Shown in pieces: positions 28,792 through 64,000 of a DNA stretch of 64,000 bases (its first letter is position 1; each line of letters starts with the position of its first letter). Under the pieces are notes generated by a model that saw nothing but the letters and a program-made list of their open reading frames with translations, was not told the DNA's origin and did not search any database. The DNA comes from Minisyncoccota bacterium (lineage in GTDB: Bacteria > Patescibacteriota > Minisyncoccia > JAHIHE01 > JAGLIN01), in NCBI GenBank assembly GCA_028690055.1, contig JAQVBZ010000005.1, positions 379 to 64,378 of the forward strand, given 5' to 3'. Both the position numbers and the translations under genes were made by a program.

Positions 28792-28927
28792 GGTGATATT
28801 GATGAATTATCTTAAATCGGACAGCTATCGTTTTGACTTAGAAAATCTTAGCTCTTGCGATCAAACCATCCTACCCCTCCTACTTCAAACTACAAACAAA
28901 AACTACTATCTCTCAAAACCTTCAATG

Positions 28928-44100: not shown

Positions 44101-44559
44101 TTTGGTCTTCCTCTTCTGGATTTTTTATGAAGTGTTTATTTATTCTTATGTTTCATGTCGCGAGTATAGAGCTTGCGATATTCAACTGTGCATTTTATCA
44201 TACTTTTACCATATGTCAAGATTATCTTAGACAAAAGATCAAATCCTATTGAGTCTGCATAAAGTAATAGCTTAAACAAGCAATCATTTTTTTTGGAGAG
44301 GGCGGGATTTACCCCTCCGGGGCATAAACTTCTCATCCCGTTATCCTATCACACCAAACAAAAAACCATATAAAAATATGGTCTTTTATTTGGCGGGCAT
44401 CCTCGGGCTGGAACCGTGATCTTTGCAATCCTAGTAAGGCTTTTTAGTAGTTTTTTGGGGTCTTAGAAAATAAGATCCTCGTGCGCTTGTCTTTTCTAAA
44501 AAGTGACAAATGTGACATGATTCTAGGAGTAAATGTTACATTAATATGTAACATTCCTT

Positions 44560-47194: not shown

Positions 47195-47482
47195 TAGATA
47201 AATCTATAAAAAATACGGTTTAAACTTAGCATATTTTAGCTAAAAATAACTGTTCTTGGCAATTAATAGGCGATAATATTATTTTATTTATATTCGAAAG
47301 TTGCTTTTATTGTTCTTTGGTTAAAATTAATAGATTAACCGTGTAGGGCAGTTCATTATTAACTTTGTTTATAACTTTACCAAGATCTAACTGTTTTGTA
47401 AACAAAAACAGAGCTAAAATAAGCTCTGTTTTTAATTCTCTCTGTGTTGACACGATGTTGCAGTGTTAAGTGAGGATATCTT

Positions 47483-48442: not shown

Positions 48443-48812
48443 TTACTAGAGCTTTTATGTTATCCCATGTCCAACTATAATAACCTTCTAAACCATTTGG
48501 ACTGGGACAAATCTTGTCTTTATAACCTCGGACGCCCACAACAGGGACTCCTGCCTCTTTTGCCATTTCGATCTCCGCTTTAACTCCGCTGCACTGACTA
48601 GTTTTTGTGCCCACCATAACAATAACCAAGTCAGTTTTTTTGATTTTTGTTAAACATTTCTCTTTCCAAGTTCTTTCATCCCAAGGCTCTTTAACAGACC
48701 AATCTTCGATTTCGAAAGGAGAGTCTGGATTTTTTGATTGACCGACAAGCGAGTTTCTTAGAAATTCATCGTTATCAAAATCAAAACTAATAAAAACTTT
48801 CTTTTTAATCAT
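48429..48812 (-). CDS. TIR-like domain protein (DUF1863/TIR_2-type)
   Basis: 127 aa. KVFISFDFDND start. Later SQCSGVKAEIEMAKEAGVPVVGV motif typical of small bacterial TIR-like domains. Overlaps the caspase-like gene by 14 nt. Confidence 0.55.
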   Translation of the reverse strand: MIKKKVFISFDFDNDEFLRNSLVGQSKNPDSPFEIEDWSVKEPWDERTWKEKCLTKIKKTDLVIVMVGTKTSQCSGVKAEIEMAKEAGVPVVGVRGYKDKICPSPNGLEGYYSWTWDNIKALVNGDR

Positions 48813-48822
48813 ATATTTGTAG

Positions 48823-49035
48823 TTATTTAGATTTTCGGTTATAAGGTGACTGGTTCGTCGGTTTTAAGCTGACACCCAGATTGGATGCTTTTTTCTGCAC
48901 TCCGCTAACAGGCCTGCCTAACTTCAAGCTTATTACCCTGGTAGGCATGTTTTCTTTTGCCATTTCTTTCAATTGCTTAACTTCTGCTGGTGTCCATTGT
49001 TTACCGGCATTTTGAATGTACTTGGGGTTTGTCAT
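48823..49035 (-). CDS. GcrA-like small DNA-binding protein
   Basis: 70 aa. WTPAEVKQLKEMAKENMPTRVISLKLGRPVSGVQKKASNLGV resembles the GcrA N-terminal DNA-binding domain. Confidence 0.4.
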   Translation of the reverse strand: MTNPKYIQNAGKQWTPAEVKQLKEMAKENMPTRVISLKLGRPVSGVQKKASNLGVSLKPTNQSPYNRKSK

Positions 49036-49043
49036 ATATTTAA

Positions 49044-49700
49044 TTAGTTCTTAATAACATCTACCACTTTACCATTTATAATGAACTCGTCATCCTCACT
49101 AATATAAATTGGCATATATTCATGATCTGACCGGGCTCGCAAAACAATCCTATTATTTTTTATATCACGGTTATATTCTTTTATGGTAGCCAATCCGTCA
49201 ATAACTGCCAGTACTATATCGCCATTGTTGTAACTCTTTATTTCACGGTCTACCAGTACATAATCACCGCTTTCAATTTTATTGCCATTAACTTCGGCTT
49301 GGTTCATGGAATCTCCGTCAGTTTTAATGGCAAATAACCTGTTTTTATTTCTTGGTAAAAGGCTGGATGATACTTTAAGATATCTTTCAACCTTTTGTTC
49401 GGCATATATAGCCGCTGGTCCACAATTTGCAGCTCCTACTATCGGAATGGAGAATAAAGGACTTTTGCTGACATGGTTATAACCTTTCTTAACGACTTTC
49501 AGTATTCCTTGCTCTAGATTCATCTGTATCAGCCCAGCTTTTTCTAATTGCTGAAGATGGTGTTTAGCAATCTGGGGTTTACCTTGGGCTCCTATAAGCT
49601 CGGCGATTTTTCTTAAGCTCAACGACCCTATGTCTGGGGTGTTGGCGATAAGATTTAATAATTGTTGTTGTGTTATATTCATATGCAATAAATATAGCAC
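49044..49700 (-). CDS. LexA/CI-like repressor (wHTH + S24 peptidase domain)
   Basis: 218 aa. N-terminal winged helix. C-terminal S24 domain with GDSMNQ catalytic Ser motif and conserved Lys. Divergent to the phage-like genes. Confidence 0.75.
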   Translation of the reverse strand: MLYLLHMNITQQQLLNLIANTPDIGSLSLRKIAELIGAQGKPQIAKHHLQQLEKAGLIQMNLEQGILKVVKKGYNHVSKSPLFSIPIVGAANCGPAAIYAEQKVERYLKVSSSLLPRNKNRLFAIKTDGDSMNQAEVNGNKIESGDYVLVDREIKSYNNGDIVLAVIDGLATIKEYNRDIKNNRIVLRARSDHEYMPIYISEDDEFIINGKVVDVIKN

Positions 49701-49797
49701 ACCCCGGGGGATTTCGCAAGTACTTTTGTAAAAGTATTTGACATTTTACACCTAGTAGGTATGATGAAGTTATAAATTAATTCATAAATTTATTTTT

Positions 49798-50208
49798 ATG
49801 GAAAACTACGAGTTGCAATTGAAGCCTTTTGAAAGGAAGGACGGTTATAAGTATAAGGTAATTCGGCTTACCGATGTTACTCTCCATACTTCAAATAAGC
49901 GACCTACTAAGGCTATGGGCAAAAAGATTAAACAAGCGTTCGAACAAAACAAGCCCGGCAGGTTTTATGGAATAAAACCCCATGAAGTAATGGAAGGTGG
50001 TGATTTGCCCACGCTTATCAACAATCTTGTTAAGAATGATCCGAATTTCTTGAAAATGATCCAAGAAGAAGAGAAGAAGGGTTATAAGGTATTGCTCGAG
50101 TTGCCCGAGGAAGGCATTCCTGCTATATTTGGGCCAGATACGGTAGAATTTTTAAATAGCAAGAATGGACAGAGAATAATGAGAGATATTCATAAGCAAG
50201 AAATATAG
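49798..50208 (+). CDS. Hypothetical phage-associated protein
   Basis: 136 aa. First gene of the rightward operon. Confidence 0.4.
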   Translation: MENYELQLKPFERKDGYKYKVIRLTDVTLHTSNKRPTKAMGKKIKQAFEQNKPGRFYGIKPHEVMEGGDLPTLINNLVKNDPNFLKMIQEEEKKGYKVLLELPEEGIPAIFGPDTVEFLNSKNGQRIMRDIHKQEI

Positions 50209-50374
50209 CACTTTTTCACAATCGAATTAATGCGTAGTAAAAAGTAGAATAGCGTATCGCCTAAAAAACCATGCCTATTCCGCGCAAGAAACAAGTCTTA
50301 GACTTAAATGTCGGAGGCCTGTTTCATGTGTGGGATAGGTTTTTTTATATTTAAATTACTAACCATATGAAATT

Positions 50375-51649
50375 ATGGAAAAGTTAAAATGGCACACTGT
50401 GCAAAAAAGGATTAATGATCTGATTCCTCAGGAAGCTAATCCTCGAAAAATTACCGATAAGCAAATGTCGGATTTGAAGAAAAGTTTGTCTAAATTCAAT
50501 CTGGTAGAAATCCCGGCTGTCGATTTAGACGGCAGGATACTAGCAGGGCATCAAAGAATCAAGGCGCTTCAGCTCCTAGGGCGAGGCGAAGAATTGATTG
50601 ATATCAGGATTCCTAATCGTCAGTTAACCGAGGATGAGGCCAAAAGATATCTCCTTGCCAGTAATGCCTTGGGTGGTGACTGGGATTTCGACAAATTAAA
50701 AACCTTTGACTTGGATTTGCTCATTGACATTGGTTTTGATCAGATTGATTTGTCTCATTTCTGGGATAATGAACTCGAAATAAAAGAGGAGGATTTTGAT
50801 GTCGAAGAAGAACTGAAAAAAATAAAAACGCCAATAACGAAACCCGGTGATCTGATACATCTAGGCTGTCATCGTCTGTTATGCGGCGATTCTACTAATC
50901 CGGATAATCTAAAAAAGTTGTTTGGAGGAGAAAAGGCCTCGATGATATTCAGTGATCCGGTTTATAATATAAAACTCGATTATTCAAAGGGCATTGGCGG
51001 CAAAAATGAATATGGCGGTGCGGTTAATGATAATCGAAGCTATGATGAATACAAACAGTTTATCAAAAATTCCCTATTAGCCGCTTTGCCTAATACAAAT
51101 TCGGATTGTCATGTCTTTTATTGGTGTGACCAGACCTATATCGGCCTGATACAAGAATTGTATCGTGAATTAGGCATAATCAATAAACGAGTTTGTTTAT
51201 GGATTAAAAACTCACAAAACCCTACTCCAATGATTGCGTTCAACAAATGCTATGAGCCCGCAGTCTATGGTGTAAAAGGCAAACCATTCATAAACCCAGA
51301 CATAAGGAACTACAATGAGATATTAAACAAGGAACTAGGCACCGGGAACGAGTTATTTGAGGATATACATGATTCCTTGGATATCTGGCTCACCAAAAGG
51401 ATATCAGGTAAAGATTATGAGCATGCAACTAGCAAGCCATCAAAGTTATACGAAAAAGCTATTCGAAGATGCACTAAGCCGGGCGATATCATTCTTGATT
51501 CATTCTCTGGATCGGCCAGCACTATTATGGCTGGAGAACAACTAAAGAGAAAAGTATATGCCATGGAGCTGGAGCCAATCTTCTGTGATTTGGCGATAAG
51601 AAGATATAGAAAATTAACTGGCAGAAAGGAGGTAGTAAAGCATGTCTAA
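50375..51649 (+). CDS. ParB-like nuclease domain fused to DNA methyltransferase (phage-type orphan N6A/N4C MTase)
   Basis: 424 aa. N-terminal ParB/Srx pattern (EIPAVDLDGRILAGHQRIKAL), motif IV-like FSDPVYN, motif I-like DSFSGSASTIMAGE. Confidence 0.8.
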   Translation: MEKLKWHTVQKRINDLIPQEANPRKITDKQMSDLKKSLSKFNLVEIPAVDLDGRILAGHQRIKALQLLGRGEELIDIRIPNRQLTEDEAKRYLLASNALGGDWDFDKLKTFDLDLLIDIGFDQIDLSHFWDNELEIKEEDFDVEEELKKIKTPITKPGDLIHLGCHRLLCGDSTNPDNLKKLFGGEKASMIFSDPVYNIKLDYSKGIGGKNEYGGAVNDNRSYDEYKQFIKNSLLAALPNTNSDCHVFYWCDQTYIGLIQELYRELGIINKRVCLWIKNSQNPTPMIAFNKCYEPAVYGVKGKPFINPDIRNYNEILNKELGTGNELFEDIHDSLDIWLTKRISGKDYEHATSKPSKLYEKAIRRCTKPGDIILDSFSGSASTIMAGEQLKRKVYAMELEPIFCDLAIRRYRKLTGRKEVVKHV

Positions 51650-52064
51650 GAAAAACAGATTACAGCAAGCATTCTTTGAAGAACTAAAGAAAGTTCCTAT
51701 CGTGCTAGTGGCTTGTGAAAAATCCGGCATCTCCCGCAATAGCGTTTATCGTTGGAAACGGGAAGATAAGGAATTTTCCAGGGCGATGGATGAAGCTTTG
51801 GCTGAGGGCGAAGCTCTGGTAAACGATATGAGCGAAAGCCAGCTTCTGACTTTGATCAAAGAAAAGAATTGGTCAGCTATCAGTTTCTGGCTTCGTCATC
51901 GCAATCCAAAATTTAAGGATAAGATAGAGGTGACTTCGAGGAATGAAAACGTTGACGAATTAACGCCATCACAGGCGGAAACTGTACGCCAGGCTTTGAA
52001 ATTGGCCAATATCCTGCCTCAAGATGAACAAGTAACTGATAAGCCTAATAATCCAACTCTATGA
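51642..52064 (+). CDS. Phage terminase small subunit
   Basis: 140 aa. HTH pattern GISRNSVYRWKREDKEF. Overlaps neighbours by ATGTCTAA/ATGA (translational coupling). Directly upstream of the large subunit. Confidence 0.6.
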   Translation: MSKKNRLQQAFFEELKKVPIVLVACEKSGISRNSVYRWKREDKEFSRAMDEALAEGEALVNDMSESQLLTLIKEKNWSAISFWLRHRNPKFKDKIEVTSRNENVDELTPSQAETVRQALKLANILPQDEQVTDKPNNPTL

Positions 52065-53527
52065 AACCGAACAACATGATACCTCAGGCCTTGGTGGAAC
52101 AAATGACTAAGGACAGGAAGATAAGAACAGCAATAACTAAGGAAAGCTTCTCTTATTTCTTTCACTTTTATTATGCTCATTATGTTAAATATGCGACCGC
52201 CGATTTTCAAAAAGAAATCATAAGCTTGGTTGAAAAGAGCGACAAGGAAAATCTCTTTGTCGTGGCCTTCAGAGGTTCGGGTAAGTCTACCGTTATTACT
52301 GCCGCCTATCCGATCTGGGCAATCCTTGGCAAACAAGAAAAGAAATTTGTCGTCATTTTCTGCCAAACTCAAGCTCAGGCCAAGCAGCACATGATGAACT
52401 TGCGACGTGAATTAGAAGATAATGACTTATTAAAAAAAGACCTTGGCCCCTTCAGGGAAAATAGCGATGAGTGGGGCGCGCAATCAATCGTGTTTTCCAA
52501 TACGGATGCTCGTATTACCGTTGCTTCAGTGGATCAAAGTATTCGTGGCATAAGGCACTATCAACATCGACCGGATTTGATTATCTGTGACGATGTCGAG
52601 GATATAAGTTCCACTAAAACTAGGGAGGGAAGAAATAAAACCTATCAATGGCTAAAGAGCGAAGTGATACCAGCTGGTGATAGAGATACCAGATTGATAA
52701 TAGTCGGTAATTTATTACACGAGGATTCCCTGCTTATGAGGTTAAAGGAAGAAAGAGAAAAAGAGGTTATTGATGGCAACTTTCTGTTTTATCCGTTAAT
52801 TGACAAGAAGGGTGATTGTCTATGGCCGGGCAAATACCCAACCGATGAAGATATTGAAAATGAGCGCAGAAAGGTCGGTAATGAGATTACCTGGCAACAA
52901 GAATACCTACTTAATATCGTTCCGTCCGAAGATCAAGCTATATTTCAAGAATGGATAAACTATTACGATGAGATACCGGCACCTCTAAAACTATATGGCG
53001 GTTATAGTTCGTATATGGAAATAAGAATTGGAATTGACCCAGCTATTTCTAAAAGTGATGTCGCTGATTATACTGCTATGGTTCCTGGTATGTTATATGA
53101 AACTACGTCTAACTATAAGCTTTATATTCTCCCTAAAATAATAAATAAGCGTTTAAGCTTCCCTGAAACAGTTGATGCTTGTAAAACATTATATCAGAGC
53201 TACAAAAGAGATTCTGTTTATCCAAAATTCATCATAGAAGATGTGGCTTATCAAAAAGCCTTGCCTCAACAACTGCAAGTCGAGGGTATTTATAATGTAA
53301 TGACAACCAGGCCAGGAAATCAGGATAAAAGAAGTAGACTTATCGTACTAGCTAACCTAATTAAAACTGGACAAATATTGTTCCCAAAGGAAGGAGCGGA
53401 GGAACTAATACAACAGATAGTCCATTTTGGGGTTGAAAAACATGATGACTTAGCTGATGCCTTTGCCAATTTAGCTCACAGCATGATTGAAAAACCGCCG
53501 AGATCGTGCAGAGTCTATTGGGTATAG
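52061..53527 (+). CDS. Phage terminase large subunit
   Basis: 488 aa. Walker A AFRGSGKST, Walker B LIICDDVED, C-terminal RNaseH-like nuclease acidic residues. Confidence 0.8.
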   Translation: MKPNNMIPQALVEQMTKDRKIRTAITKESFSYFFHFYYAHYVKYATADFQKEIISLVEKSDKENLFVVAFRGSGKSTVITAAYPIWAILGKQEKKFVVIFCQTQAQAKQHMMNLRRELEDNDLLKKDLGPFRENSDEWGAQSIVFSNTDARITVASVDQSIRGIRHYQHRPDLIICDDVEDISSTKTREGRNKTYQWLKSEVIPAGDRDTRLIIVGNLLHEDSLLMRLKEEREKEVIDGNFLFYPLIDKKGDCLWPGKYPTDEDIENERRKVGNEITWQQEYLLNIVPSEDQAIFQEWINYYDEIPAPLKLYGGYSSYMEIRIGIDPAISKSDVADYTAMVPGMLYETTSNYKLYILPKIINKRLSFPETVDACKTLYQSYKRDSVYPKFIIEDVAYQKALPQQLQVEGIYNVMTTRPGNQDKRSRLIVLANLIKTGQILFPKEGAEELIQQIVHFGVEKHDDLADAFANLAHSMIEKPPRSCRVYWV

Positions 53528-53672
53528 CTAGAAAAGTTATCGGTAAGGCTATATATTCGAATATAAAGTAAAAACTTTGCAGACTGCATAAAATTGTCGA
53601 CTTTTCATTTACTTTTAGCGGAAAAAGAGGTAAAGTAATGGTAATTTGATAATAAAAAAACTATAAAATCAT

Positions 53673-53864
53673 ATGATAAAACCAGTAAACGTTACGTCCT
53701 TAAACGCATCTGATGAGTTATCTTGTGAATGTAATAAATGCGGTTGGGTAGGCAAGCTCAAATTGAATGGATATATTGTTAATACAGACAATGACGGTAA
53801 TCCATTAGGAAATATCGACGAGAACTGTCCTGAGTGCGGGGCTAGTTTAAATGAAAATATATAG
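53673..53864 (+). CDS. Small zinc-ribbon protein
   Basis: 63 aa. CECNKCGW...CPECG. Confidence 0.35.
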   Translation: MIKPVNVTSLNASDELSCECNKCGWVGKLKLNGYIVNTDNDGNPLGNIDENCPECGASLNENI

Positions 53865-53916
53865 GAGGTGTGCCAAATAAAAATGTCTATAATAAATAAC
53901 ATAAACTACTAAAAAC

Positions 53917-54390
53917 ATGGATAACCTAATATTTGCCAGAAATTTAGTTAAAGGTAAAATCGCAGAAACCATATTTGCCCAGATGCTCAGAGAAACAAAA
54001 GATTTCACAGTCTTAGAATTTGGCTATGAGAAAATCATTCCTGAATTAGTACAACAGGGATATGATGAAAATAATTTGATGCTTGAAACTTTGAGAACAG
54101 CACCAGATTTTGCAGTTATTAATCAAAAAACGAGAGAGGTTAGACTTATCGAGGTAAAATATCAGCGTACTATAAATTATGACTATGTTTTAAAATATGC
54201 AGAAAAGATGAGCCAGTCATGGAATCCGTCTTATCTTTTTGTTGCTACTCTGGATGGCTTTTATTTTGATGAAATTAATAATGTTATTAATGATAAAGGC
54301 AGGATTTCTCCTTTAAAACATCCCCAGATAAGCAATGATTTACAAGATAAATATCTAAAGATATTAACGGATTTCGAGAAAAACAATTAA
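53917..54390 (+). CDS. PD-(D/E)xK nuclease-fold protein (YraN/UPF0102-like)
   Basis: 157 aa. E (KIAETIFAQ) ... APDFAVIN ... VRLIEVKYQ gives a canonical E-PD-ExK arrangement. Confidence 0.5.
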   Translation: MDNLIFARNLVKGKIAETIFAQMLRETKDFTVLEFGYEKIIPELVQQGYDENNLMLETLRTAPDFAVINQKTREVRLIEVKYQRTINYDYVLKYAEKMSQSWNPSYLFVATLDGFYFDEINNVINDKGRISPLKHPQISNDLQDKYLKILTDFEKNN

Positions 54391-54406
54391 GAAATATTTA
54401 AAAAAT

Positions 54407-55696
54407 ATGCCTGAAAAGAAAAATAGACGAGAGGAATATTTAGAAAGTACAAACGAGGACAAAGAAATATATTTTTTTATTGATGAATTTCAAAAAATAA
54501 ATATTAAATCTCGGGAAGTGTATATCAAAACCAATAAAGTTATTCATCATCCATTTAATAAATCTGGAAACTTTAAATATAAAAAAATAACAGAAATTAT
54601 ATATGAAGGATTGCCAGATCCACTGCCTAGAGGTTTTATCAAAGATTGGAGGCTTGGGTATGGTTTTACGAAAGTATTGAATCCAATACTTTATTTGATT
54701 GAAACAAAATTTGATGTGTCGAAAGTTGTCGTGAAGCCAAAAGGAAAATTCATGATAAAAAATAGAACGGTATACCTTAGTTATGAAGATTTGAATAAGT
54801 TCTATCCGAAAATGGACACTCTTATGAAAGTTCAGAGTAGTCAAAAAGAAGCGTTAGTCTCAAAATATCTTAGTCAGTATCTACCTACAGAATTTAAAGA
54901 TAGTAAACAAAAATATATAAAAGGATCAATTTATTCGATTGTCACAGACCAAATTGGTAAGGATGGATCAATTTCAAAGGATGATTATGATGCTATGCTT
55001 GAGCTAGTTGTATCGAAGTCAAGCGAGCAAACGATTGAATCGAAAAAAATAGTTTTAGCCACAAAGGAAAAAATCGAAAAAATATTCTTAGAAGATGGGG
55101 TTAAAGATTTTAAAAAAATATTAATTTTAAAATCTGTTTCTGGAGGATTTGAGAAAAAATGGGAACAGTTTTTCAAGGAGAATACATGGATTATCTCCAA
55201 TCTGTTCTCTCTCCCTGCATTGCTGTTTGCTAATCAGGCTTATGTGGGCGGAAAGGAAATCTTCAATACTAATGGAAAAGTGACGGATTTTTTATTTAGG
55301 AACAAATTGACCGATAATTTGGCAATTATTGAACTCAAAACTCATAAAACTGAGCTATTGTCCAAGAAGCCTTACAGAGGAGATGATGTATACTCATTAT
55401 CCGAAGAACTATCTGGCGCCGTTAATCAAGTATTAGACCAAAGGCAAAATTTACTAAATGATTTTTATGCCTTAAGATGCAAAACTGGCAATACGAATCA
55501 ATTTGAATCATATAATTCTAGATGTCTTATAATCGCTGGTAAAATCGAAGATCTTCCTAAAAATGGTAAAAGAAGTTTTGAAATTTTCCGAAATAATCTA
55601 CATGGCGTTGAAATTGTTACATTTGATGAGGTGCTGGAGAAAATGGAAACTTTTGTTTCTTTAATTAAGACGGATGCTAAAAAAAGAAAGAGATAG
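54407..55696 (+). CDS. Large PD-(D/E)xK nuclease-domain protein (Shedu/DUF4263-like candidate)
   Basis: 429 aa. C-terminal half carries D...DNLAIIELK (hydrophobic strand + ExK) and ends ...GVEIVTFDEVLEKME. The family assignment is tentative. Confidence 0.35.
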   Translation: MPEKKNRREEYLESTNEDKEIYFFIDEFQKINIKSREVYIKTNKVIHHPFNKSGNFKYKKITEIIYEGLPDPLPRGFIKDWRLGYGFTKVLNPILYLIETKFDVSKVVVKPKGKFMIKNRTVYLSYEDLNKFYPKMDTLMKVQSSQKEALVSKYLSQYLPTEFKDSKQKYIKGSIYSIVTDQIGKDGSISKDDYDAMLELVVSKSSEQTIESKKIVLATKEKIEKIFLEDGVKDFKKILILKSVSGGFEKKWEQFFKENTWIISNLFSLPALLFANQAYVGGKEIFNTNGKVTDFLFRNKLTDNLAIIELKTHKTELLSKKPYRGDDVYSLSEELSGAVNQVLDQRQNLLNDFYALRCKTGNTNQFESYNSRCLIIAGKIEDLPKNGKRSFEIFRNNLHGVEIVTFDEVLEKMETFVSLIKTDAKKRKR

Positions 55697-55764
55697 TTAG
55701 GTATTCGTAAAAAGATTTTTACGACTTTATTTATATAGGTGATAACAAATTTAATATAAACGCG

Positions 55765-56193
55765 ATGTTTTCTATAGGCAATATCTGTTCAATAATTTCC
55801 GTTCCATTTGCTTCATCCGCATCTTCTTTCTTATGGCAGATTATTCTCTTGCTATGGCCGTGGTACTGGCTGGGCATATTTCTCTTTCTTATTACATGGA
55901 TAATCTGGGAAATAATAACTCGTAACGGTACGGCACATTATAATTCTAAAAATGGCTTTTCTCCTTCTTTTAATCGTTTTGTCGGTAGTGGTACTTATGC
56001 AGGTTTGCAGGCATTAGTCTATTTATTTTTTGAAAAGTTTTTTGGCGATTCTGTATATTGCATGGTATGGCCATACGAAATTCATCTCGTTGTATTTCTT
56101 TCATCGGGATTGTTGCTACATCTGTCTGGATTTTGGCCTTATCTTTGGGAACCAAGCGGACAACGATACCACAAAAAGAGACATTATCGTTAG
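55765..56193 (+). CDS. Hypothetical membrane protein
   Basis: 142 aa, about 4 hydrophobic segments. Confidence 0.4.
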   Translation: MFSIGNICSIISVPFASSASSFLWQIILLLWPWYWLGIFLFLITWIIWEIITRNGTAHYNSKNGFSPSFNRFVGSGTYAGLQALVYLFFEKFFGDSVYCMVWPYEIHLVVFLSSGLLLHLSGFWPYLWEPSGQRYHKKRHYR

Positions 56194-56318
56194 ATTATAA
56201 TACTCCAAACAGTTATAATAACCACTTACAAGTGGTTATTATTGTTAACATAGCTAGTCATCCTAGCCAATATCAGCTAAAATAATAGGTTCGTATAATA
56301 ACATATTAATATAATTCT

Positions 56319-57422
56319 ATGAACGATAAACCATATAATCACTTAAAGGATCGCATATATTACAGTGAACTTTACGATAAGCTTACTATCGAAAAATGTC
56401 AGTGGTGGGAGAAGCGCCAATATTCTAAAGACATTTCTAAACTAAAAGGCAAAGAAAAGGAAATCGAAGAAGCTAAAGAAAGATGGTTTCATAATGCGGT
56501 TATACCTATAGCCCTGTATTTTATTAAAGCAGATCGCGCTTCTAAGAAGTCTGAAACAATCCAAGGGTGGATGAAACGAGATAAAGAGAAAGACGAGAAA
56601 GTTATTAATGCCAAAAAACCGCAAGGCGTTCGGTGCTTAGGCTGTAGCTCACCCTTGGAAAACTGCATATCACGTGATCTTATGAATAATCATAAGGGAA
56701 AAGAAGAAGTGCTTTTTATGTTTGAATGCTCTAAATGCGGAAAACGCCGAGTTTATTGGGAAGATGGAACAGAATGGGAGCATAAGCCAACTTGTATAAA
56801 ATGTAATTTTGAAGTGCAGGCAGAGAGTAAAAGAGAGAAAGATATTATTATCCATATATGTTCTTGTTCACACTGCGGTCATGTGGAGACTGACGTATGG
56901 GATTTAAATGAAAGAAAGGAGGAAAAGATAGATCCAGACTTTGAAGCCAATCGAAAGAAATATTGCATTTCCGAACAAGAAGGATATGAAATTATAAGCC
57001 GAGCAGAACAGATGGGAAAATTAGTTGAAAAATTTAAAGATAAAGAAGAAAATAAAGATATTTATGATGCGGTTAGTAAAATTAAAAAGCTAAATATCGC
57101 AGAGTTACAAGATCTTCTTAATTCTGTGATGGAAAATAATGGCTATATTAAACTTGAATTTGAAAAGCCTGAATTTCAGAAAGATGTTATCTTGGGTTTT
57201 AGCCTTCAAGACAACAAGCCCGGTCGGGAAAAATATGACAGCGTTCACAATCTTCAAAAGCTTATAAAAGAGACTCTTACACCTACAAACTGGAGATTGA
57301 TGAGCGATGGAATCATATATCGTTTAGGGTTCCTGCAAGGCAGACTTAAAGGTATTGAAGGCGAAGAAAATCTCTTGAAACTAGTCGAAAACGACCTTAA
57401 GAAAAAGGCTAAAAGTAGGTAG
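56319..57422 (+). CDS. Multi-zinc-ribbon protein, hypothetical
   Basis: 367 aa with four CxxC pairs (CLGC, CSKCGK, CIKC, CSCSHCGH) and a Lys/Glu-rich C-terminus. Confidence 0.45.
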   Translation: MNDKPYNHLKDRIYYSELYDKLTIEKCQWWEKRQYSKDISKLKGKEKEIEEAKERWFHNAVIPIALYFIKADRASKKSETIQGWMKRDKEKDEKVINAKKPQGVRCLGCSSPLENCISRDLMNNHKGKEEVLFMFECSKCGKRRVYWEDGTEWEHKPTCIKCNFEVQAESKREKDIIIHICSCSHCGHVETDVWDLNERKEEKIDPDFEANRKKYCISEQEGYEIISRAEQMGKLVEKFKDKEENKDIYDAVSKIKKLNIAELQDLLNSVMENNGYIKLEFEKPEFQKDVILGFSLQDNKPGREKYDSVHNLQKLIKETLTPTNWRLMSDGIIYRLGFLQGRLKGIEGEENLLKLVENDLKKKAKSR

Positions 57423-57511
57423 ATAAACTGTTGGTAACTAGCTCTTAGCAAAAAATAATATTTATGATATTATTGCTGGACATCTAGATGTTTTTAGTTT
57501 AAAATGGTAAT

Positions 57512-57716
57512 TGACAATTGATGGCTGAAAGGCCAGGCTACCTAAACTCAGACTTCATGTCTGGGCATGGTGCTTCAAGACCCAACCAAGACACTGACCT
57601 CCACGTTCAGCGACTCTTGGTTGGGCTATGTCTGGAAACGGACATAGGGCCGCAAGGCCTAGCTGGCGTGGAGACTTTTGGATCTCTACGACCAGCTACT
57701 GCATAGCTGGTTTTTA
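57512..57716 (+). ncRNA. Candidate structured small RNA (GC-rich, >=6 hairpins incl. GAAA and GCAA tetraloops) ending in an intrinsic terminator
   Basis: Hairpins CAGAC-UUCAU-GUCUG, CCCAACCAAGA/UCUUGGUUGGG (11 bp), CUAUGUC-UGGAAACG-GACAUAG, GGCC-GCAA-GGCC, GUGGAGA/UCUCUAC. Long-range GCCAGGCUA/UAGC-UGGC pairing. Terminator CCAGCUA-CUGCA-UAGCUGG+U5. GC about 55% versus about 33% in the flanks. Confidence 0.4.
57692..57716 (+). terminator. Rho-independent terminator (CCAGCTA-ctgca-TAGCTGG-TTTTT)
   Basis: Perfect 7-bp stem plus T-run. This is the 3' end of the structured RNA candidate. Confidence 0.55.
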
Positions 57717-57740
57717 TTAATTAAATAAAACATTAAAACC

Positions 57741-58385
57741 ATGAACGAGGAAACAACGAAGTGTCCTAAGTGCAAAGAAGAAGTTTTAAAAGGTGCGAAA
57801 AAGTGCAAGCATTGTGGTGCGGATCTTAGAAATTGGTTTATGCGTCACAAAATCATCTCTGTATTTTTAGTTCTTATGTTTATCGGCATCATAAGTGGAG
57901 GAAGTAATCCAAATAACTCAAACAATGGGCAAAATTCCAATGGCATTCAAAACGATACTAAAGCGGAACAAAAGACTGGCAAAATAAATGAAACTATTTC
58001 TGTCGGAAATTTTAGCTACAGAGTGCAGAAAGCGGAACAGGCTCAGTCGGTTGGTAACCAATATATTAACCATGATGCCTCTGGAGTTTATGAAATCGTA
58101 TCTTTAACACTCAGAAATAATGACAAAGAATCACGTTATGCAGACAGCAATATGTTTAAACTGATGGATAATCAAGGCAGATCATTTGTCGTTTCTACGG
58201 AAGCTACTAGTGCTTATTCTATAGCCAACGATAATCAGTACGATCTGTTCTTAAAACAAGCCAATCCCGGTCTTGAAATAAACGGAGTGCTTATCTTTGA
58301 TATTCCCCAAGATGCCAGTGGTCTTAAACTTGAAGTAAGCGGCGGATTTGGTAGTCCGGAAAAAGCCTACATAGAACTTAACTAA
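57741..58385 (+). CDS. Zinc-ribbon / TM / extracellular-domain protein (DUF4352-like architecture)
   Basis: 214 aa. CPKC...CKHCG ribbon, one TM (IISVFLVLMFIGIISGG), Asn/Gln-rich linker, C-terminal beta-rich domain. Confidence 0.5.
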   Translation: MNEETTKCPKCKEEVLKGAKKCKHCGADLRNWFMRHKIISVFLVLMFIGIISGGSNPNNSNNGQNSNGIQNDTKAEQKTGKINETISVGNFSYRVQKAEQAQSVGNQYINHDASGVYEIVSLTLRNNDKESRYADSNMFKLMDNQGRSFVVSTEATSAYSIANDNQYDLFLKQANPGLEINGVLIFDIPQDASGLKLEVSGGFGSPEKAYIELN

Positions 58386-58569
58386 ATCTATATTTAGACG
58401 TTTAAAGAATACCCTCTGTATCTTCTTAGATCAGAGGGTATTTTTATTTGTTATGCCAACCAAACTCAATTCTTCGATAAGATAACCTGTATCTGTTCGC
58501 TCTTAGCAAAAGCTTAAAAGTGTGTCATTAATGGAGGCGTAGATTTAACTAAATAATCAACTAAATCAT

Positions 58570-59853
58570 ATGCTTCCATTAGAAACTAAGCTGAAATACT
58601 GCTTATATGCTAGAAAAAGCACTGAATCAGATGAGCGACAAGCCTTATCAATTGATTCTCAAGTTAAAGAAATGCTTCAAATAGCCGAACGAGAAAACTT
58701 AGAAATCGTTGATATCAGGAGAGAATCAAAATCAGCCAAAGACTCAGGTAACCGTCCTATCTTCAAAGAGTTAATCAAAGATATAACGGAAGAAAAGTTC
58801 AACGCTATCATTACCTGGGCTCCCGATAGACTTTCTAGAAACGCTGGCGATTTAGGATCGCTAGTTGATTTAATGGATGAGAAAAAATTAATGAGCATTC
58901 GTACTTTTGGCCAAACTTTTAGTAATTCTCCAAATGAAAAGTTTCTGCTCATGATTTTATGTTCTCAGGCCAAACTAGAAAATGATAATCGAGGGATAAA
59001 CGTAAAAAGAGGTTTAAGGGCAAGATGCGAGATGGGCTTATGGCCGACCTGTCCGCCAACGGGATACTTTAAAGAAAAGCGAGTTGATCATAAAGGACAA
59101 TGCTTAGTTGATCCTGATAGAGGTCCGGTAATAAAGCAAATGTTTGAGAAGGTTGCTTATGAGAAATGGTCCGGCCGAAAGCTTTATAACTGGCTTAGAT
59201 TCGATTTAAACTTTAGGACAGCTTTAGGTAAAAAACACTTAAGTCTCGGTAATATTTATCGACTTCTAGAAAATACCTTCTATTATGGCCCTTTTGAATA
59301 TCCTCGTGGTAGTGGTAACTGGTATCAGGGAAAACATGAACCGATAATCACCAAAGAAGTATTCGATTTAGTCCAAGAACAGATGAAGAATTCCCAACTA
59401 GTCAGACGAGAGAATATTGAGTTTGCCTTTACTAAAGTAATGAAGTGCGGTTTATGCGGTTCGGGAATTTCAGCCACGGAAAAATTTAAGAAGTTAAAAG
59501 ATGGCGGCTATAATCGCCATGTCTACTACGGATGTACCAAAGCAAAAGACAATAATTGTAAATCAGGCTATATTAGCGAAGAAGACCTGATTAAACAATT
59601 ACAAAAACAAATCGATAAATTGGATTTTAAAAAAGTTTCTATTCAAGATAAAATTCAGGGAGAAATCAAAAGATTCAAAAAGTTTCAAATCATGGCAACT
59701 GGCAAAAATGACAATATCGACGTAAGCGACGTCGATATTAAAAATTACATCAAATTCTTGTTAAAAGAAGGAGACGATCAAGAGAAACGAGAACTACTCA
59801 CATGCTTAAATGGGGAGATATTGTTGAAGAATAAGGTGATTGTGATTAAATAA
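58570..59853 (+). CDS. Large serine recombinase (phage-type integrase)
   Basis: 427 aa. Resolvase catalytic domain with YARKSTESDERQ (nucleophile Ser), recombinase domain, zinc-ribbon CGLCGSG...YYGCTK. Confidence 0.85.
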   Translation: MLPLETKLKYCLYARKSTESDERQALSIDSQVKEMLQIAERENLEIVDIRRESKSAKDSGNRPIFKELIKDITEEKFNAIITWAPDRLSRNAGDLGSLVDLMDEKKLMSIRTFGQTFSNSPNEKFLLMILCSQAKLENDNRGINVKRGLRARCEMGLWPTCPPTGYFKEKRVDHKGQCLVDPDRGPVIKQMFEKVAYEKWSGRKLYNWLRFDLNFRTALGKKHLSLGNIYRLLENTFYYGPFEYPRGSGNWYQGKHEPIITKEVFDLVQEQMKNSQLVRRENIEFAFTKVMKCGLCGSGISATEKFKKLKDGGYNRHVYYGCTKAKDNNCKSGYISEEDLIKQLQKQIDKLDFKKVSIQDKIQGEIKRFKKFQIMATGKNDNIDVSDVDIKNYIKFLLKEGDDQEKRELLTCLNGEILLKNKVIVIK

Positions 59854-59881
59854 CTTCAAAAATTAATTAAAAAAATAGCAC

Positions 59882-60619
59882 CTATTTAATCACATTCCAA
59901 TTATCGAGAAAATATCCCATTTCGTGATCCATATTACCGAGATAAATCTTCTCATCTCTAAATTTGATATTTACGCGGTAGCGTTTGCCGTGCCCGACTT
60001 CCAAAATTGCTTTTTCGTGGACTTTCTTCTCAACTTCGTGAAATGGCAAAATTAGAAAGTGATTTTTCTTTTCTCCGTGCAGGACGAAAATATAAAAAAC
60101 ATTGCCGTTACTATGTCGCTCAAAAGAAACTTTGCGGATATCAAAAACATAGGTATTAAATCGATTAATATTTGAAGTTTTAACCTGTATGCCAAATAAC
60201 TGATTATCTCTGACAGCCACAATGTCTATTCCGACATCTACGCTCATTATGCTGGCATTGAAACCACGAAAAAGGAGTTCCGAGCAAACAAGATGTTCAC
60301 CGCCTTTGCCGGTAAATCCACCTTCAATTACAATCTTTTCCTCCTCAGCCTTTTCCACCTCTCGGATTCTTGGTGTTTCTCTGATTTCTTTTTTGTTTGG
60401 GTTAAGGGCATAAGTTCCGGGGGCAATTCTTACAAAATCTGATCCTTCGCCTTTGGTTTTGATATCCACCACAATCTGCGCCTTCATAGTCGCTTCCGGC
60501 GTTGCGCCTTCGGTTTCCAGAAGGCCGGACTCCAAGGCTAAACGAGTGATTTCGGTATAGTGCAGAGGCTTTTTAGTTTTTTGCAATATTTCAATAGCGG
60601 ATTGTTTGAAGGTGTTCAT
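59882..60619 (-). CDS. HARE-HTH domain protein with C-terminal restriction-endonuclease-like (PD-(D/E)xK, Mrr-cat-like) domain
   Basis: 245 aa. N-terminal SAIEILQKTKKPLHYTEITRLALESGLLETEGATPEATMKAQI (HARE-HTH pattern). C-terminal E (GGEHLV) ... VDVGIDIVAV ... GIQVKTS. Confidence 0.55.
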   Translation of the reverse strand: MNTFKQSAIEILQKTKKPLHYTEITRLALESGLLETEGATPEATMKAQIVVDIKTKGEGSDFVRIAPGTYALNPNKKEIRETPRIREVEKAEEEKIVIEGGFTGKGGEHLVCSELLFRGFNASIMSVDVGIDIVAVRDNQLFGIQVKTSNINRFNTYVFDIRKVSFERHSNGNVFYIFVLHGEKKNHFLILPFHEVEKKVHEKAILEVGHGKRYRVNIKFRDEKIYLGNMDHEMGYFLDNWNVIK

Positions 60620-60625
60620 ATTGTA

Positions 60626-61516
60626 TTAACTAACGATGTTGTGTTTTTTAAATATATCTAGAAAAGTTGGAGTTGCAAACCCGAAAGAATAGTTAGCATT
60701 TAAGGTTTCAATAAAAGCTTTCTCCTTGTAGACTTTCAATTGTTTTGCATTCTCTTCAGAAATCATATTCTCTCGTTCATTGATTCTTATTGACCTGAAT
60801 CCCTTGACGATAGAAATAACTTTTCCCGTTTTTACATCAAAAATTGGGCCACCGCTATTTCCCGGGTTAAATGCAAGTGTAAATTCATATAAATAATTTG
60901 TTGTAGAAGTCTGGTATCGACAATTAACAACGCCTCGATCTGTTCGAAGTAAAATATTGCCGATCAGTGGCTTATTTATATCTCTTTCTTGAAATCCAAG
61001 TTCACAAAGTGGGTATCCGAGCACGCCAACCTCAGAGCCGATTGGTAAAAATTCTTTCGATATTCTTATAAAATCATTTCTATCGGCGAATATTCGATCA
61101 TTAACTTGATAAAATTCATCATCCAAATAAATAACAGCGAGATCAATATCAGGATAGATAAATATTTCTTTATCTAATTTTGGTTCAAAAATTCTACAGT
61201 GCCAATTATTATCATCATCGTGCCTCAAAAGATAATATTTATCGCCGTTTTGATGTTGGGCTAGTTCATCCTTCTCCGGATCATTTATAACATGTGCAGC
61301 CGTAACATATCGGTTTGGAGCAGCGATAAAGCCTGAACCCAAAGTAATCCAATTGATACTTTCTTGTTTGTCGATCTTAATTTTTCTGCCACGAACAATA
61401 ATATAAACAGATTTTTTTAACCATTTAACACATTCGGGAAACGAGTGAAAATTTTCCGGTCTTTTTGGAAGTTTTGGCCCTTGATATTTTTTATCTCTTT
61501 TATTCTTTTTAGGCAT
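60626..61516 (-). CDS. Trypsin-like (S1 family) serine peptidase
   Basis: 296 aa. His motif VTAAHVI, Asp in IDLAVIYLDDE, Ser motif GNSGGPIFD. Confidence 0.7.
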   Translation of the reverse strand: MPKKNKRDKKYQGPKLPKRPENFHSFPECVKWLKKSVYIIVRGRKIKIDKQESINWITLGSGFIAAPNRYVTAAHVINDPEKDELAQHQNGDKYYLLRHDDDNNWHCRIFEPKLDKEIFIYPDIDLAVIYLDDEFYQVNDRIFADRNDFIRISKEFLPIGSEVGVLGYPLCELGFQERDINKPLIGNILLRTDRGVVNCRYQTSTTNYLYEFTLAFNPGNSGGPIFDVKTGKVISIVKGFRSIRINERENMISEENAKQLKVYKEKAFIETLNANYSFGFATPTFLDIFKKHNIVS

Positions 61517-61536
61517 AAATCAAAATTTCTATAATA

Positions 61537-62073
61537 TTAAAATTGAAATGCTTTTTCTTTATATTGATTTATTTTTTCTGATAAACTATCAATCTCTTTA
61601 ATTTTTTGACGAATAGTTTTAGGCGTCATCGACACTTTCTTAAATTTCACAAATCCTTCATCTGTATCCACAACAATTTTCGCTCTAACATATCCATCTT
61701 TACTAAGCGATTGCCAATTTGCGTGAACAATACTATTCCTAAATGTATTTAACTCATTAAGTCGATTTCGTAGTTTATCCAAAATTGCTTTGTGTTTTTT
61801 GTTATTAAACGATTCTAAACGAACATACATCTTATAAAAAAGATCGATTTTATTGCTTGTCGTTAGTTTTTCAATAATTACGAATCCAGTTTCGTGGCTA
61901 TCATCATGCAAAAAATCTGCGATTGCGATGTTTAACTCTTGTTCTAAAATACTGAAACTAACTAGAAATTTTCCAATTAACAAGAAATATTTATCAGCTA
62001 CTTTTTCCAGATATTCTCCGTCTGAAAAATCATACTGTTCCATCTCATCATAAATTACTTGATTCGTATTCAT
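61537..62073 (-). CDS. HEPN-like (Abi_2/AbiD-AbiF-type) abortive-infection-like protein
   Basis: 178 aa. Conserved R-N-x-x-x-H (FRNSIVHANW) near the C-terminus of a helical domain, as in Abi_2 HEPN proteins. Confidence 0.45.
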   Translation of the reverse strand: MNTNQVIYDEMEQYDFSDGEYLEKVADKYFLLIGKFLVSFSILEQELNIAIADFLHDDSHETGFVIIEKLTTSNKIDLFYKMYVRLESFNNKKHKAILDKLRNRLNELNTFRNSIVHANWQSLSKDGYVRAKIVVDTDEGFVKFKKVSMTPKTIRQKIKEIDSLSEKINQYKEKAFQF

Positions 62074-62131
62074 AGTTCGCTGTTAGATGTTTTTGCTGAA
62101 ACAGAAGGAATAAATTCACGTTTTTAGCACA

Positions 62132-63295
62132 TTACCGATTTCCTTTTGCTCGATTGTGTGTCTTACACAACATCTCGCAGTTTTTAATATCACTCTTACC
62201 ACCCTTACTCCATGCCGAAACATGATCGGCGTCCATATCCGCAATACTCCAAATCTTGTCTTTGTTTGCATCGTGTCCAATCGCACAGTGAGAGCAGTTT
62301 GAAACACCCTTTTTCTTTGCGATAGCGGTTTGAGCTTCGTAAACTGAACGTTTAGTTGAATCCTCAAATACTCGTACTTCAAGAAGTTTTGTTTCAACTC
62401 CTCCACCTAAAACATACTCAAAAATGCCTTTTCGACTTTTTACGAAACCATCAGCATAGAGTTTTTTAACCAGGGCAGAGACGGTAGTTGGATTGAATTT
62501 TTTCTTGTGATAAGTTTCGTAAAGCCTGTTCCACTCCAAGCCTTTCATCTCACTTTCAACTTCAGTAAATGTACTTGAGACCCAATCAATAACAGTGTCG
62601 AAATGTTTTTTTAGTTCGGTAATATTTTTGTCATTGCGGTGCTTACTCATGTAACTATCGATACCACCACCAGAAACCCAATCTAAAGCCCGTTCCAAAT
62701 ATGCTTGGCGCTTTATATCACCTGCAATGTACGCGCCCCATTTAAGCACATTGGCATTTTGACTATTGCTAAATTCTTCGCGGCCACGAGTGACAAAAGG
62801 CCCAGAATATACTGCGTTAAGAATCTCTTGTTCGGTTAATGGTACGCCAGCGATGTTGATAGTCTTAAACCAATCCTTAATCTCAGGCTCGTCGCCTTTA
62901 CATATATACACCAACAATTTAGTGTTCATTATTTGCTCGCGCTGACTGGTGGCCATACCGCTGTAATACTGTTCGTGACCATTCTTGTCTTTAACAGCAA
63001 ACTTGCCTTTCACAAACCGACCAATGCTAGTGATACGTTGCTGTCCATCGAGCACTTCAAATTTATCATTGTCAACTTGGTTGAAATAAATTAAACCTAT
63101 TGGATAACCTTTCAAGATCGAGTCAATTACAGCAACATCACGTTTGCCGTCAGCGTAAATGTAATTACGCTGATACTCTGGTTGAATAGTCAGTTTACCA
63201 GAGAGGCCAAACAAACCCTTTCCTTCGAATTCGTTATATTCGAACCCGTCACAAACTTCTTTAATGGTGATATCATTCTTTAAGGTTGTTTTCAT
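62132..63295 (-). CDS. GmrSD-like DUF262 (ParB/NTPase-like, DGQQR) + DUF1524/HNH endonuclease protein (type IV restriction-like)
   Basis: 387 aa. N-terminal [10 protein letters not shown]...[11 protein letters not shown]-terminal HNH: HCAIGH...[32 protein letters not shown]. Confidence 0.8.
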
Positions 63296-63296
63296 A

Positions 63297-64000
63297 TTAT
63301 TTTTTCTTGTGCTTAATAAAAATTCGCTTGTAAGCCATTTTTGCTATGCCATCTTCATAAAAACCAGCAGTAGGATTGCCTTCTTTGTAAGCACCAGTGC
63401 CACCAGCTTTGTAATAGTCTTCTACAAATTGTTTTTTTAAACCAGGAGAGGTCTTATACTTATCATCTACGAGGCCGTTATCGCTTGTCCCTAAAATATC
63501 AAATTGTCCGGGTGAATATTTATCTAAAAAACTGATTGGTACGCCCATAACGCCGTTGTAGTCTTTCGGAATATTTTTTACTAAAGCAATTTCAATCGCA
63601 TCATAATTGTCATAGTGTACGAATGGCTTGTTTGTACTGAACTTTATAACATCGGCGTGAGTCATTAAGGGAATCGGTTGGTGTAGTCGTCCGTGATCAA
63701 GATTTGTAAACCAACGCACCCCTTGGACTCTTGTTATATAAGTCTTTTTACCTTTTTCGTCAGTCTTAATTTCACGCACTTGGTCTAAGTTTGCAACAGC
63801 TTCTGGAATCTCGTAGAACATTGCACCACCGTTAACTCTTGCATTGTTTCCGAGCCATACCTTATTCTCTTTGATCATTGGAAAAATTTCCTTATAGGTT
63901 ATTGCATTGAGATTACCAATGATTAGAAATTGCTTTTTATGCTCGAAAAGTTGCGTAATATATTCCCGAAATAAACTAAATGGAGGATTGGTGACTACGA
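63297..64000 (-). CDS. Adenine-specific DNA methyltransferase, C-terminal part (partial; N-terminus beyond window)
   Basis: The reading frame stays open upstream of the annotated Met to the window edge and encodes ...[47 protein letters not shown].... NPPF is motif IV of gamma-type/EcoRI-like N6A MTases. The stop lies 1 nt before the GmrSD-like gene start. Confidence 0.6.

Follow-up and report, generated by a model that had tools for sequence, protein, structure and literature searches.

Among the structured RNAs that metagenomes have contributed to Rfam, LOOT (RF03000) has been present since 2017-2020 as a metagenome-only orphan, filed as a small RNA ('sRNA') without host, genomic context or function. 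The motif originates from Weinberg et al. 2017 (PMC5737381), and it is absent from the main-text discussion of that study; the Rfam 14 paper places LOOT among the metagenome-based RNAs (PMC7779021), and the CaCoFold paper describes it by approximately 43 base pairs (bp) in six helices, with no pseudoknot and no function (PMC7657543). Our literature search on LOOT found no paper addressing its function. The current study concerns positions 57512-57716 of a 64,000-nucleotide (nt) stretch of DNA from a Minisyncoccota bacterium (assembly GCA_028690055.1, contig JAQVBZ010000005.1; the whole stretch is referred to as the window), where an initial annotation, made from the letters alone, had marked a GC-rich, highly structured candidate RNA of about 200 nt with GNRA tetraloops and its own terminator inside a phage-like element. 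This RNA is a member of the LOOT family, hence known but function-less. New to the family are a host phylum, the Patescibacteria (candidate phyla radiation, CPR), together with viral contigs; an element context with ParB-methylase, terS, terL and a large serine integrase; and a pseudoknot, an extended architecture and evidence suggestive of a leader and attenuator, by which the orphan RNA is made directly testable.

Transcription-attenuating riboswitches and leaders, such as the purine and SAM-I riboswitches of Firmicutes, work through four alternative segments. LOOT compares with them in pairings that can be read as 1:2 (closing helix and pseudoknot), 2:3 (antiterminator) and 3:4 (terminator with U-run), in its position in a 5' untranslated region (UTR), and in the differing expression platforms that are placed on one conserved core; unlike them, it has no known ligand, is followed by heterogeneous mobile-element cargo and not by the genes of one pathway, and lacks support for translational platforms. 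The CI RNA of satellite P4 and the put RNA of phage HK022 are cis-encoded mobile-element RNAs that control transcription termination. Like these, LOOT is structured, lies just after a promoter in a phage-derived element and is proposed to act on the termination of its own transcript; no sequence or structure similarity to them was found, Rfam giving only LOOT for the stretch. ROOL and GOLLD are large ornate RNAs that often reside in prophages (PMC12286853). LOOT resembles them as an orphan, ornate, phage-linked bacterial RNA of comparative-genomics origin, and it differs in being much smaller (~170-205 nt) and consistently the leader of a protein gene, with no homology to either detected in Rfam scans.

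The Rfam scan that the initial annotation had proposed as a check, run on the whole window, returned LOOT at 57539-57660 on the + strand, scoring 73.9 bits (gathering score 46.4; E = 5e-12; model positions 1-121 of 121), the only other RNA match being a transfer RNA (tRNA). A permissive scan of the 57512-57716 region (E up to 10) gave no credible second family, with LOOT alone at E < 0.1. All six helices of the Rfam model, its invariant GAAA loop and its CCUAAAC/GCAUGG loop are found in the window, as are the conserved loop nucleotides of the family (CCUAA.C, GCAUGG, GAAA, G.AA). The model describes only the middle 122 nt of the ~205-nt island marked at the outset. Beyond it, the window and its relatives add a 5' box, an optional hairpin P0, a pseudoknot to a 3' box and a platform of P7 and terminator, and the genomic contexts seen here are those of a 5' leader, unlike the family's sRNA label. 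Approximately 85 LOOT homologues were collected by pattern scans (homologous loci are given as L numbers), which returned 23 loci from GTDB species-representative genomes, 59 distinct loci of the window's own subtype from metagenomes and six distinct loci from IMG/VR viral contigs; generic receptor patterns applied to the viral contigs returned mostly group I introns and chance matches beside these six. Of the genome loci, 17 of 23 are in metagenome-assembled genomes (MAGs) named as Patescibacteria/CPR lineages (Saccharibacteria, Paceibacterota, Kaiserbacteria, Nomurabacteria, Moraniibacteriota, Parcubacteria, Minisyncoccia), the remainder being four 'bacterium' MAGs and two short contigs binned elsewhere. 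From this distribution of its LOOT relatives, the window too would be assigned to a Patescibacterium. The Rfam LOOT threshold was passed by 17/17 other homologues that were re-scanned (including L128/L133; 16 loci at 56-93 bits), and blastn against GenBank phages gave no match to the LOOT stretch.

The island is richer in GC than its flanks, as had been noticed, at 51.7% and not the 55% given then; the flanks have ~35% and the whole window 40.6%. Its minimum free energy of -93 kcal/mol on the + strand (z = -6.8, 0/200 shuffles as good) bears out the description as highly structured, and the - strand folds less well (z = -5.4). When the sequence was re-read, every hairpin and stem listed in the initial annotation was located in 57512-57716, and three GNRA tetraloops were confirmed (GAAA at 57527-30, GAAA at 57635-38, GCAA at 57652-55). 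Each listed helix exists in the sequence, but three of them (closing helix, GUGGAGA/UCUCUAC hairpin, terminator) have strands in common and cannot all be present at once; strands are shared also with P0 (57523-34), P1 and the pseudoknot, which had been overlooked, as had P1 with its receptor-like internal loop. Consensus scans agree with the annotated promoter (TGGACA-17-TAAAAT, 57477-57505) and with the annotated terminator (57690-57712 plus T-run), the latter being the sole terminator-like site in 56000-59000. The parts of the locus, all on the + strand, are as follows.

57445-57473, +: second promoter match, TTAGCA-17-TATTAT
57477-57505, +: promoter-like site, -35 TGGACA, 17-nt spacer, -10 TAAAAT
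57514-57522, +: 5' box ACAAUUGAU, conserved and unpaired; family consensus ACAAYUGAAU
57518-57706, +: 62-residue open reading frame (ORF) with TTG start, judged not to be a gene; frame not conserved
57523-57534, +: P0 hairpin GGCU-GAAA-GGCC with GNRA loop; outside the Rfam model, in only part of the family
57532-57540, +: segment 1, 5' strand of the closing helix, GCCA-G-GCUA; pairs with UAGCUGGC at 57660-67
57539-42 with 57569-72, +: P1; Rfam alignment, covariation
57541-47 (CCUAAAC) and 57564-70 (GGCAUGG), +: receptor-like internal loop; the two halves covary
57547-53 with 57559-65, +: P2 hairpin, containing CAGAC-UUCAU-GUCUG (57547-57565)
57581-91 with 57615-25, +: P3, 11-bp stem enclosing P4; 9/10 P3 pairs changed on both sides
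57594-97 with 57607-10, +: P4 hairpin; Rfam alignment, fold, covariation
57599-57605, +: pseudoknot 5' strand CUCCACG in the P4 loop; covariation
57626-57647, +: P5, 9-bp hairpin (CUAUGUC...GACAUAG extended) with GAAA tetraloop at 57635-38
57648-57659, +: P6 hairpin GGCC-GCAA-GGCC; the Rfam model ends at 57660
57660-57698, +: P7, antiterminator-like hairpin; UAGCUGG 57660-66 with CCAGCUA 57692-98, GUGGAGA 57668-74 with UCUCUAC 57683-89
57667-57673, +: pseudoknot 3' strand CGUGGAG, 7 nt past the end of the Rfam model; U-rich tract next
57690-57716, +: intrinsic terminator GACCAGCUA-CUGCA-UAGCUGGUU with U-run; has the P7 3' strand as its 5' strand
57741-58385, +: downstream cargo gene, zinc-ribbon, transmembrane segment and DUF4352, 214 residues; phrog_806

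Covariation was counted in a MAFFT alignment of 76 homologues over P1 to P6 plus one pseudoknot. Paired cells make up 93.3%, compared to 75.2% in column shuffles (0/500 as high) and <=45% with the partners slid, and 37/44 pairs are changed on both sides. All six helices P1 to P6 are supported by covariation; P4, for example, changes from CUGAAC/GUUCAG to CUGAUC/GAUCAG in L204, L218 and L229. The 7-bp pseudoknot between 57599-57605 and 57667-57673 has 100% of its cells paired in the 76 sequences, with compensatory change at 7/7 pairs (variants CCCUGCG/CGCAGGG, CCCCACG/CGUGGGG, CCUCGCG/CGCGAGG, CCGCACG/CGUGCGG, CCCGUUA/UAGCGGG and CCCAUCA/UGGUGGG) and a duplex energy of -10.4 kcal/mol. G-U pairs are frequent, so that the LOOT structure is specific to the + strand. 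What the alignment shows is a fold of P1 to P6 with the P5 GAAA tetraloop, the receptor-like loop of P1/P2 and the 7-bp pseudoknot. Directly after the 3' strand of the pseudoknot, most members carry a U-rich tract (consensus CUUUGUGUUU), which is weaker in the window (57674-57683, ACUUUUGGAU); pseudoknot and tract together have the geometry of an intrinsic terminator whose 'stem' would be the pseudoknot itself.

The loop of P5 is GAAA in 76/76 sequences and that of P6 is GYAA in 73/76. The P1/P2 internal loop has the form CCUAAAC/GGCAUGG in 46/76, including the window, and CCUAAC/(G)UAUGG in 14/76, the two forms covarying. The consensus of the 11-nt GAAA-tetraloop receptor is CCUAaG/U_AaGG, and UA_handle internal loops are related to it (PMC2615604). 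LOOT shares with this tetraloop-receptor pair the invariant GAAA and a CC-UAA.../...A(U/A)GG loop, near-canonical in 14/76; unlike the receptor, the window's loop has one extra nucleotide per side. Pattern scans encountered the CCUAAAC/GGCAUGG form also inside many bona fide group I introns, which supports the reading as a tertiary-contact module, and we infer that the P5 GAAA loop may dock into the receptor-like loop of P1/P2. The pattern ACCTAAAC...GGCATGGT likewise matched group I introns (RF00028) that form arrays of as many as four in a locus of 7 kilobases (kb) on viral contigs, some from giant-virus MAGs (L005, L008, L034, L035, L110, L115); from these matches, group I introns share the internal-loop module.

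At the 5' side, 62/78 loci have a TAnnnT hexamer whose last nucleotide is 6-8 nt upstream of the 5' box; this places the likely transcription start and suggests that each LOOT has its own promoter; the 5' box is the probable 5' end of the transcript. The box has no covarying partner in the homologue alignments and no complementary site beyond chance in the window, the sequence that was searched. Two candidate partners of the box, the 3' U-rich tract and the P4 3' strand (AUUCAG), were checked by eye on the alignment and rejected for lack of covariation, and the box remains CUGAAU where the candidate P4 partner shifts to AUCAG or UUAG. The P0 hairpin reappears in homologues as GCCC-GGAA-GGGC, GCCC-GCAA-GGGU and CUGGUC-GGAA-GACCAG. 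Segment 1 shares nucleotides with P0 and with the outermost two pairs of P1, and the closing-helix duplex that it forms is worth ~-8 to -11 kcal/mol; the helix is retained through wobble-compatible changes in L172, L173, L216 and L228. As a family-wide feature the closing helix was rejected (mean -4.2 vs -3.8 kcal/mol in shuffles, p = 0.32) and it was kept for the terminator-linked subset only.

The position of LOOT relative to genes is strongly one-sided. The coding strand downstream is the same as that of LOOT in 68 loci and opposite in 1 (n = 77, p = 2e-19), and upstream it is the same in 20 and opposite in 38. From the start of P6 to the next AUG-started ORF the distance is 37-133 nt, usually 70-96 nt; some loci have the AUG directly after the 3' box, without room for a terminator (L149 at +37, L163 at +40). 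A motif usually found in potential 5' UTRs, with terminators involved, is read as cis-regulatory by Weinberg et al. (PMC5737381), and most occurrences of LOOT are within what could be the 5' UTR of a gene on the same strand. In the window, the DUF4352 gene starts 25 nt past the U-run of the terminator, and the consensus scan found no separate promoter match in the gap; a DUF4352 gene follows LOOT also in L173, L216 and L228. A hydrophobic segment within the N-terminal 100 residues is present in 59/76 (78%) LOOT-associated ORFs compared to 154/598 (26%) other ORFs of the same loci (p = 2e-18, uncorrected for relatedness). Pfam matches of the cargo comprise zinc-ribbon/transmembrane proteins like the DUF4352 protein, trypsin-like proteases, peptidoglycan-binding proteins, a staphylococcal-nuclease homologue, a superinfection-immunity protein, DUF4145 and DUF5655/NucS-like nucleases, and PADLOC assigned some cargo to the candidate single-gene defence families PDC-S18 (1.6e-97), PDC-S11 and SNc+LTD.

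This gene arrangement suggests that LOOT relatives, instead of being small RNAs on their own, constitute a 5' leader controlling a variable gene for a membrane protein or for defence in phage-derived elements of ultrasmall (CPR/Patescibacteria) bacteria. The initial annotation had proposed a phage- or satellite-encoded sRNA; its context and its structured RNA are retained, whereas the homologues point to a cis-acting leader in place of a free-standing sRNA acting in trans. Nothing points to the anti-defence role that was also considered there, as the genes following LOOT resemble exclusion/defence cargo and surface proteins. LOOT-gene modules may be repeated within a locus: L171 has two complete modules in tandem (1403-1517 and 612-730, -), and L174 has two same-strand LOOT copies ~3 kb apart (4075-4180 and 898-1021, -), each with a same-strand ORF just after it. 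Most LOOT-associated ORFs (~75 loci) have no Shine-Dalgarno-like sequence <=18 nt from the AUG.

Folding computation shows two mutually exclusive sets of partners for the 15 nt after P6, that is, for segment 2 together with the 3' strand of the pseudoknot. In a compact state, segment 2 would pair with segment 1 (57532-40) and the pseudoknot would form with the P4 loop. In the alternative state, the same 15 nt would pair with 57683-98 to give the long hairpin P7, which occupies segment 2 and the entire pseudoknot 3' strand. P7 has -22.6 kcal/mol and is part of the minimum-energy fold, and the terminator (-11.8 kcal/mol) appears only when 57660-73 is blocked. Among the terminator-bearing loci, the window included, 16/16 have one strand that serves both as the 3' side of P7 and as the 5' side of the terminator; across them the loops vary, and in some the sequences too. 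The 15 nt after P6 have 10.1 nt paired with the downstream leader vs 7.4 in shuffles (p = 5e-9), the pseudoknot strand alone has 5.6/7 nt paired downstream vs 4.5 in shuffles (p = 2e-8), and the closing helix co-occurs with terminators (9/15 vs 6/38 loci, p = 0.0025).

Because P7 and the terminator compete for one strand, we equate P7 with read-through and the compact fold with termination. P7 would capture that strand, the 5' strand of the terminator, and let transcription continue into the cargo gene, and the compact fold would free CCAGCUA (57692-98) for the terminator with the second UAGCUGG copy (57690-57716). We favour the compact fold as the OFF state. The ratio of termination to read-through would be set by whatever factor stabilises or destabilises the compact fold, conceivably a small ligand, a protein, an ion, temperature or the kinetics of folding. 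For the window and its terminator-bearing relatives, computation gives LOOT a slightly better than even prospect of being a cis-acting transcription attenuator of the DUF4352 gene at 57741. Viewed family-wide, one type of leader would stand before very different cargo, mostly membrane or secreted proteins and some candidate defence, at an accessory spot beside the serine integrase. The wider proposal, that LOOT represents a so far unrecognised type of RNA sensor, broadly a riboswitch, whose pseudoknotted and tetraloop-braced core detects a cellular or infection signal and switches on or off the accessory cargo (candidates for superinfection exclusion or defence, and surface proteins) beside the serine integrase of Patescibacteria phage-satellite-like elements, is put forward tentatively and is, in our estimate, rather doubtful. 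If the switch were true, LOOT would be among the first native RNA regulators described for CPR bacteria and a possible handle for controlling gene expression in them, a need for such tools having been stated (PMC11665869). If the sensor proposal were true, it would be a regulon-defining leader for mobile-element cargo in a phylum with almost no known RNA regulation.

Several points weigh against the attenuator. A crude test of start-codon accessibility between the two states in ~60 terminator-less loci revealed no consistent change (16 up, 16 down), which lends no support to a general regulatory mechanism, and translational control through start-codon masking was discarded on the same result. 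The P7 stem of many homologues includes no more than 2-3 nt of the pseudoknot strand, and there the pseudoknot and P7 could coexist as a loop-loop contact. RNAfold, moreover, scores neither pseudoknots nor tertiary contacts. The patterns used for collection fixed P6 and, in 59 loci, segment 2, which makes the conservation there partly a matter of construction, and many of the collected loci are related, which inflates the p-values. The cargo genes share no single metabolic or transport theme, unlike the targets of classical riboswitches; the type entry of LOOT in Rfam is 'Gene; sRNA'; and to our knowledge there is no ligand or trigger for LOOT.

That type entry would suit a free-standing RNA, trans-acting or a structural component of the element, made as a discrete unit of ~165-205 nt between a promoter and a terminator that belong to it, next to which the following gene is incidental; its role might be in element immunity (as for the P4 satellite CI RNA), in packaging, or together with the serine recombinase. 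We regard this, the main rival of the attenuator, as possible, if unlikely. It is consistent with the promoter-like site and the terminator, with an ornate fold whose tetraloop/receptor-like features and pseudoknot exceed the needs of a simple attenuator, with the tight linkage to a large serine recombinase (19 + 5 + 9 of 67 loci) and recurrent terS, terL and methylase genes, with a conserved unpaired 5' box as potential binding site, and with the U-rich tract after the pseudoknot strand, which could end a shorter RNA. An independent gene would not, however, be expected to show downstream co-orientation of 68 vs 1 at very short gaps, nor an AUG directly after the 3' box as in L149 (+37) and L163 (+40). 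With P7 capturing its 5' strand first, the terminator is a poor candidate for constitutive termination, and many homologues have no terminator before the ORF at all. The 5' box, moreover, has no complementary target in the window, as far as the search for the seed of a trans-acting sRNA extended, and the variable stretches are all within helices, leaving no free guide-like loops. A distinctly less probable option keeps LOOT in the 5' UTR but as a constitutive element without switching, which protects the 5' end of the messenger RNA from RNase or helps the ribosome to start on cargo without Shine-Dalgarno sequence. The leader position, the lack of such a sequence upstream of most cargo AUGs, the high diversity of cargo and the absence of a consistent effect on AUG accessibility would all suit it, yet it leaves unexplained the P7-overlapping terminators (16/16 loci), the excess complementarity between pseudoknot strand and downstream leader, and the link of closing helix and terminator.

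At the level of DNA, LOOT might be an attachment (att) or cassette-boundary site of the neighbouring serine recombinase in an integron-like layout. The common arrangement of recombinase on one strand and LOOT followed by cargo on the other would fit, as would the tandem LOOT-gene modules, the opposite orientation of the LOOT-cargo module relative to the terL/integrase backbone in the window and L181, and the 13-nt direct repeat GCUCUUAGCAAAA that flanks LOOT-DUF4352 in the window. Covariation, however, has kept one-strand G-U pairs and a pseudoknot, as fits RNA and not duplex DNA; a conserved promoter stands in front of LOOT; and in 21 kb of AT-rich DNA a repeat of 13 nt does not exceed chance expectation, its other occurrence (L189) being at the promoter position. 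We hold such a site to be improbable. Scarcely any credence is left for a small protein gene in the 62-residue ORF at 57518-57706, which is indeed, as annotated, the only ORF in the island. Its open, TTG-started frame coincides with the island and is fully open in 33/78 homologues, but in 45/78, among them L173 and L228 as the closest relatives, stops or frame-shifting indels interrupt it; there is no conserved start codon, substitutions preserve base pairs by compensation and not codons, and few stop codons are expected anyway in GC-rich sequence. A conserved small protein translated from homologous loci, named in the initial annotation as the outcome that would overturn a structured non-coding RNA, was thus looked for and not found. 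The leader, and with a slight preference the attenuator, is what we retain.

The window is chromosomal DNA (LigA, ValRS, RecG and PilB are present), and the phage-like element annotated in it is supported by the genes near LOOT. No structural genes were recognised in the phage-derived element within the window. The gene order is CI/LexA-like repressor, ParB-methylase, terS, terL, a 157-residue ORF, Shedu SduA, two ORFs without assigned function, LOOT, the DUF4352 gene and the integrase, all on the + strand except the repressor. The element is in, or itself forms, a dense defence island (window 44000-64000), with more defence-type genes to either side of it (TIR, caspase-like, GmrSD, methylases and a trypsin-like protease), and the features located there are as follows.

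47483-48442: caspase-like protein, defence island
48429-48812: ThsB-like TIR protein, defence island
49044-49700, -: CI/LexA-like repressor of the element
between terS and the 157-residue ORF, +: terL, phrog_38 (3e-88)
54407-55696, +: Shedu SduA, within the element and part of the defence island
58570-59853, +: large serine recombinase (integrase), phrog_95
59882-60619: HARE-HTH/PD-(D/E)XK protein, defence island
60626-61516: trypsin-like protease, defence island
62132-63295: GmrSD-HNH, defence island
63297-63878: EcoRI-type methylase, defence island

Homologues of the integrase are present in 33/67 LOOT loci with enough flank: immediately upstream and divergent in 19, downstream after the cargo in 5, as in the window, and elsewhere in the locus in 9. 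The five downstream integrases are on the same strand as LOOT, and the divergent ones have their start codon ~140-215 nt upstream of the LOOT RNA. A block of methylase, terS and terL recurs near LOOT, the typical layout being a divergent integrase, LOOT with its cargo, and then terL, terS and methylase converging on LOOT and cargo. Linkage to the integrase and recurrence of this block indicate, from gene content, that LOOT is apparently a hallmark of a family of phage-satellite-like, capsid-less integrative elements, in which it heads a variable cargo position beside the integrase; they also back the phage or satellite context first proposed. Loci with a recombinase homologue beside LOOT include L181, L189, L083, L168, L164, L219, L209, L200, L221, L229, L172, L176, L204, L216, L148, L194, L218, L208 and others.

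A direct repeat GCTCTTAGCAAAA (13 nt exact, 35 nt at 71%) at 57441-57475 and 58499-58533 flanks the LOOT-DUF4352 module. Its second copy lies 60 nt before the recombinase gene, the repeat contains a TTAGCA hexamer resembling a -35 element, and the exact 13-mer is found also upstream of LOOT in L189 (5331-5343). As a recombination site the 13-nt repeat was rejected, being within chance expectation and at the promoter position; it may represent a shared promoter/operator or the trace of a module insertion. Genes for tRNA are located near the ends of some LOOT loci (L204 324-395, L216 36-107, L151 72-142, L101 12874-12947) and are possible integration sites of the elements; the tRNA-Arg(GCG) of the window, at 28927-28999, is 28 kb away. 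Directly upstream of LOOT, at 56319-57422, the window encodes a protein of 367 residues that contains several CxxC pairs and matches nothing in Pfam or PHROG; homologues of this protein are near LOOT in L173 (88% identity, same position), L146 and L204.

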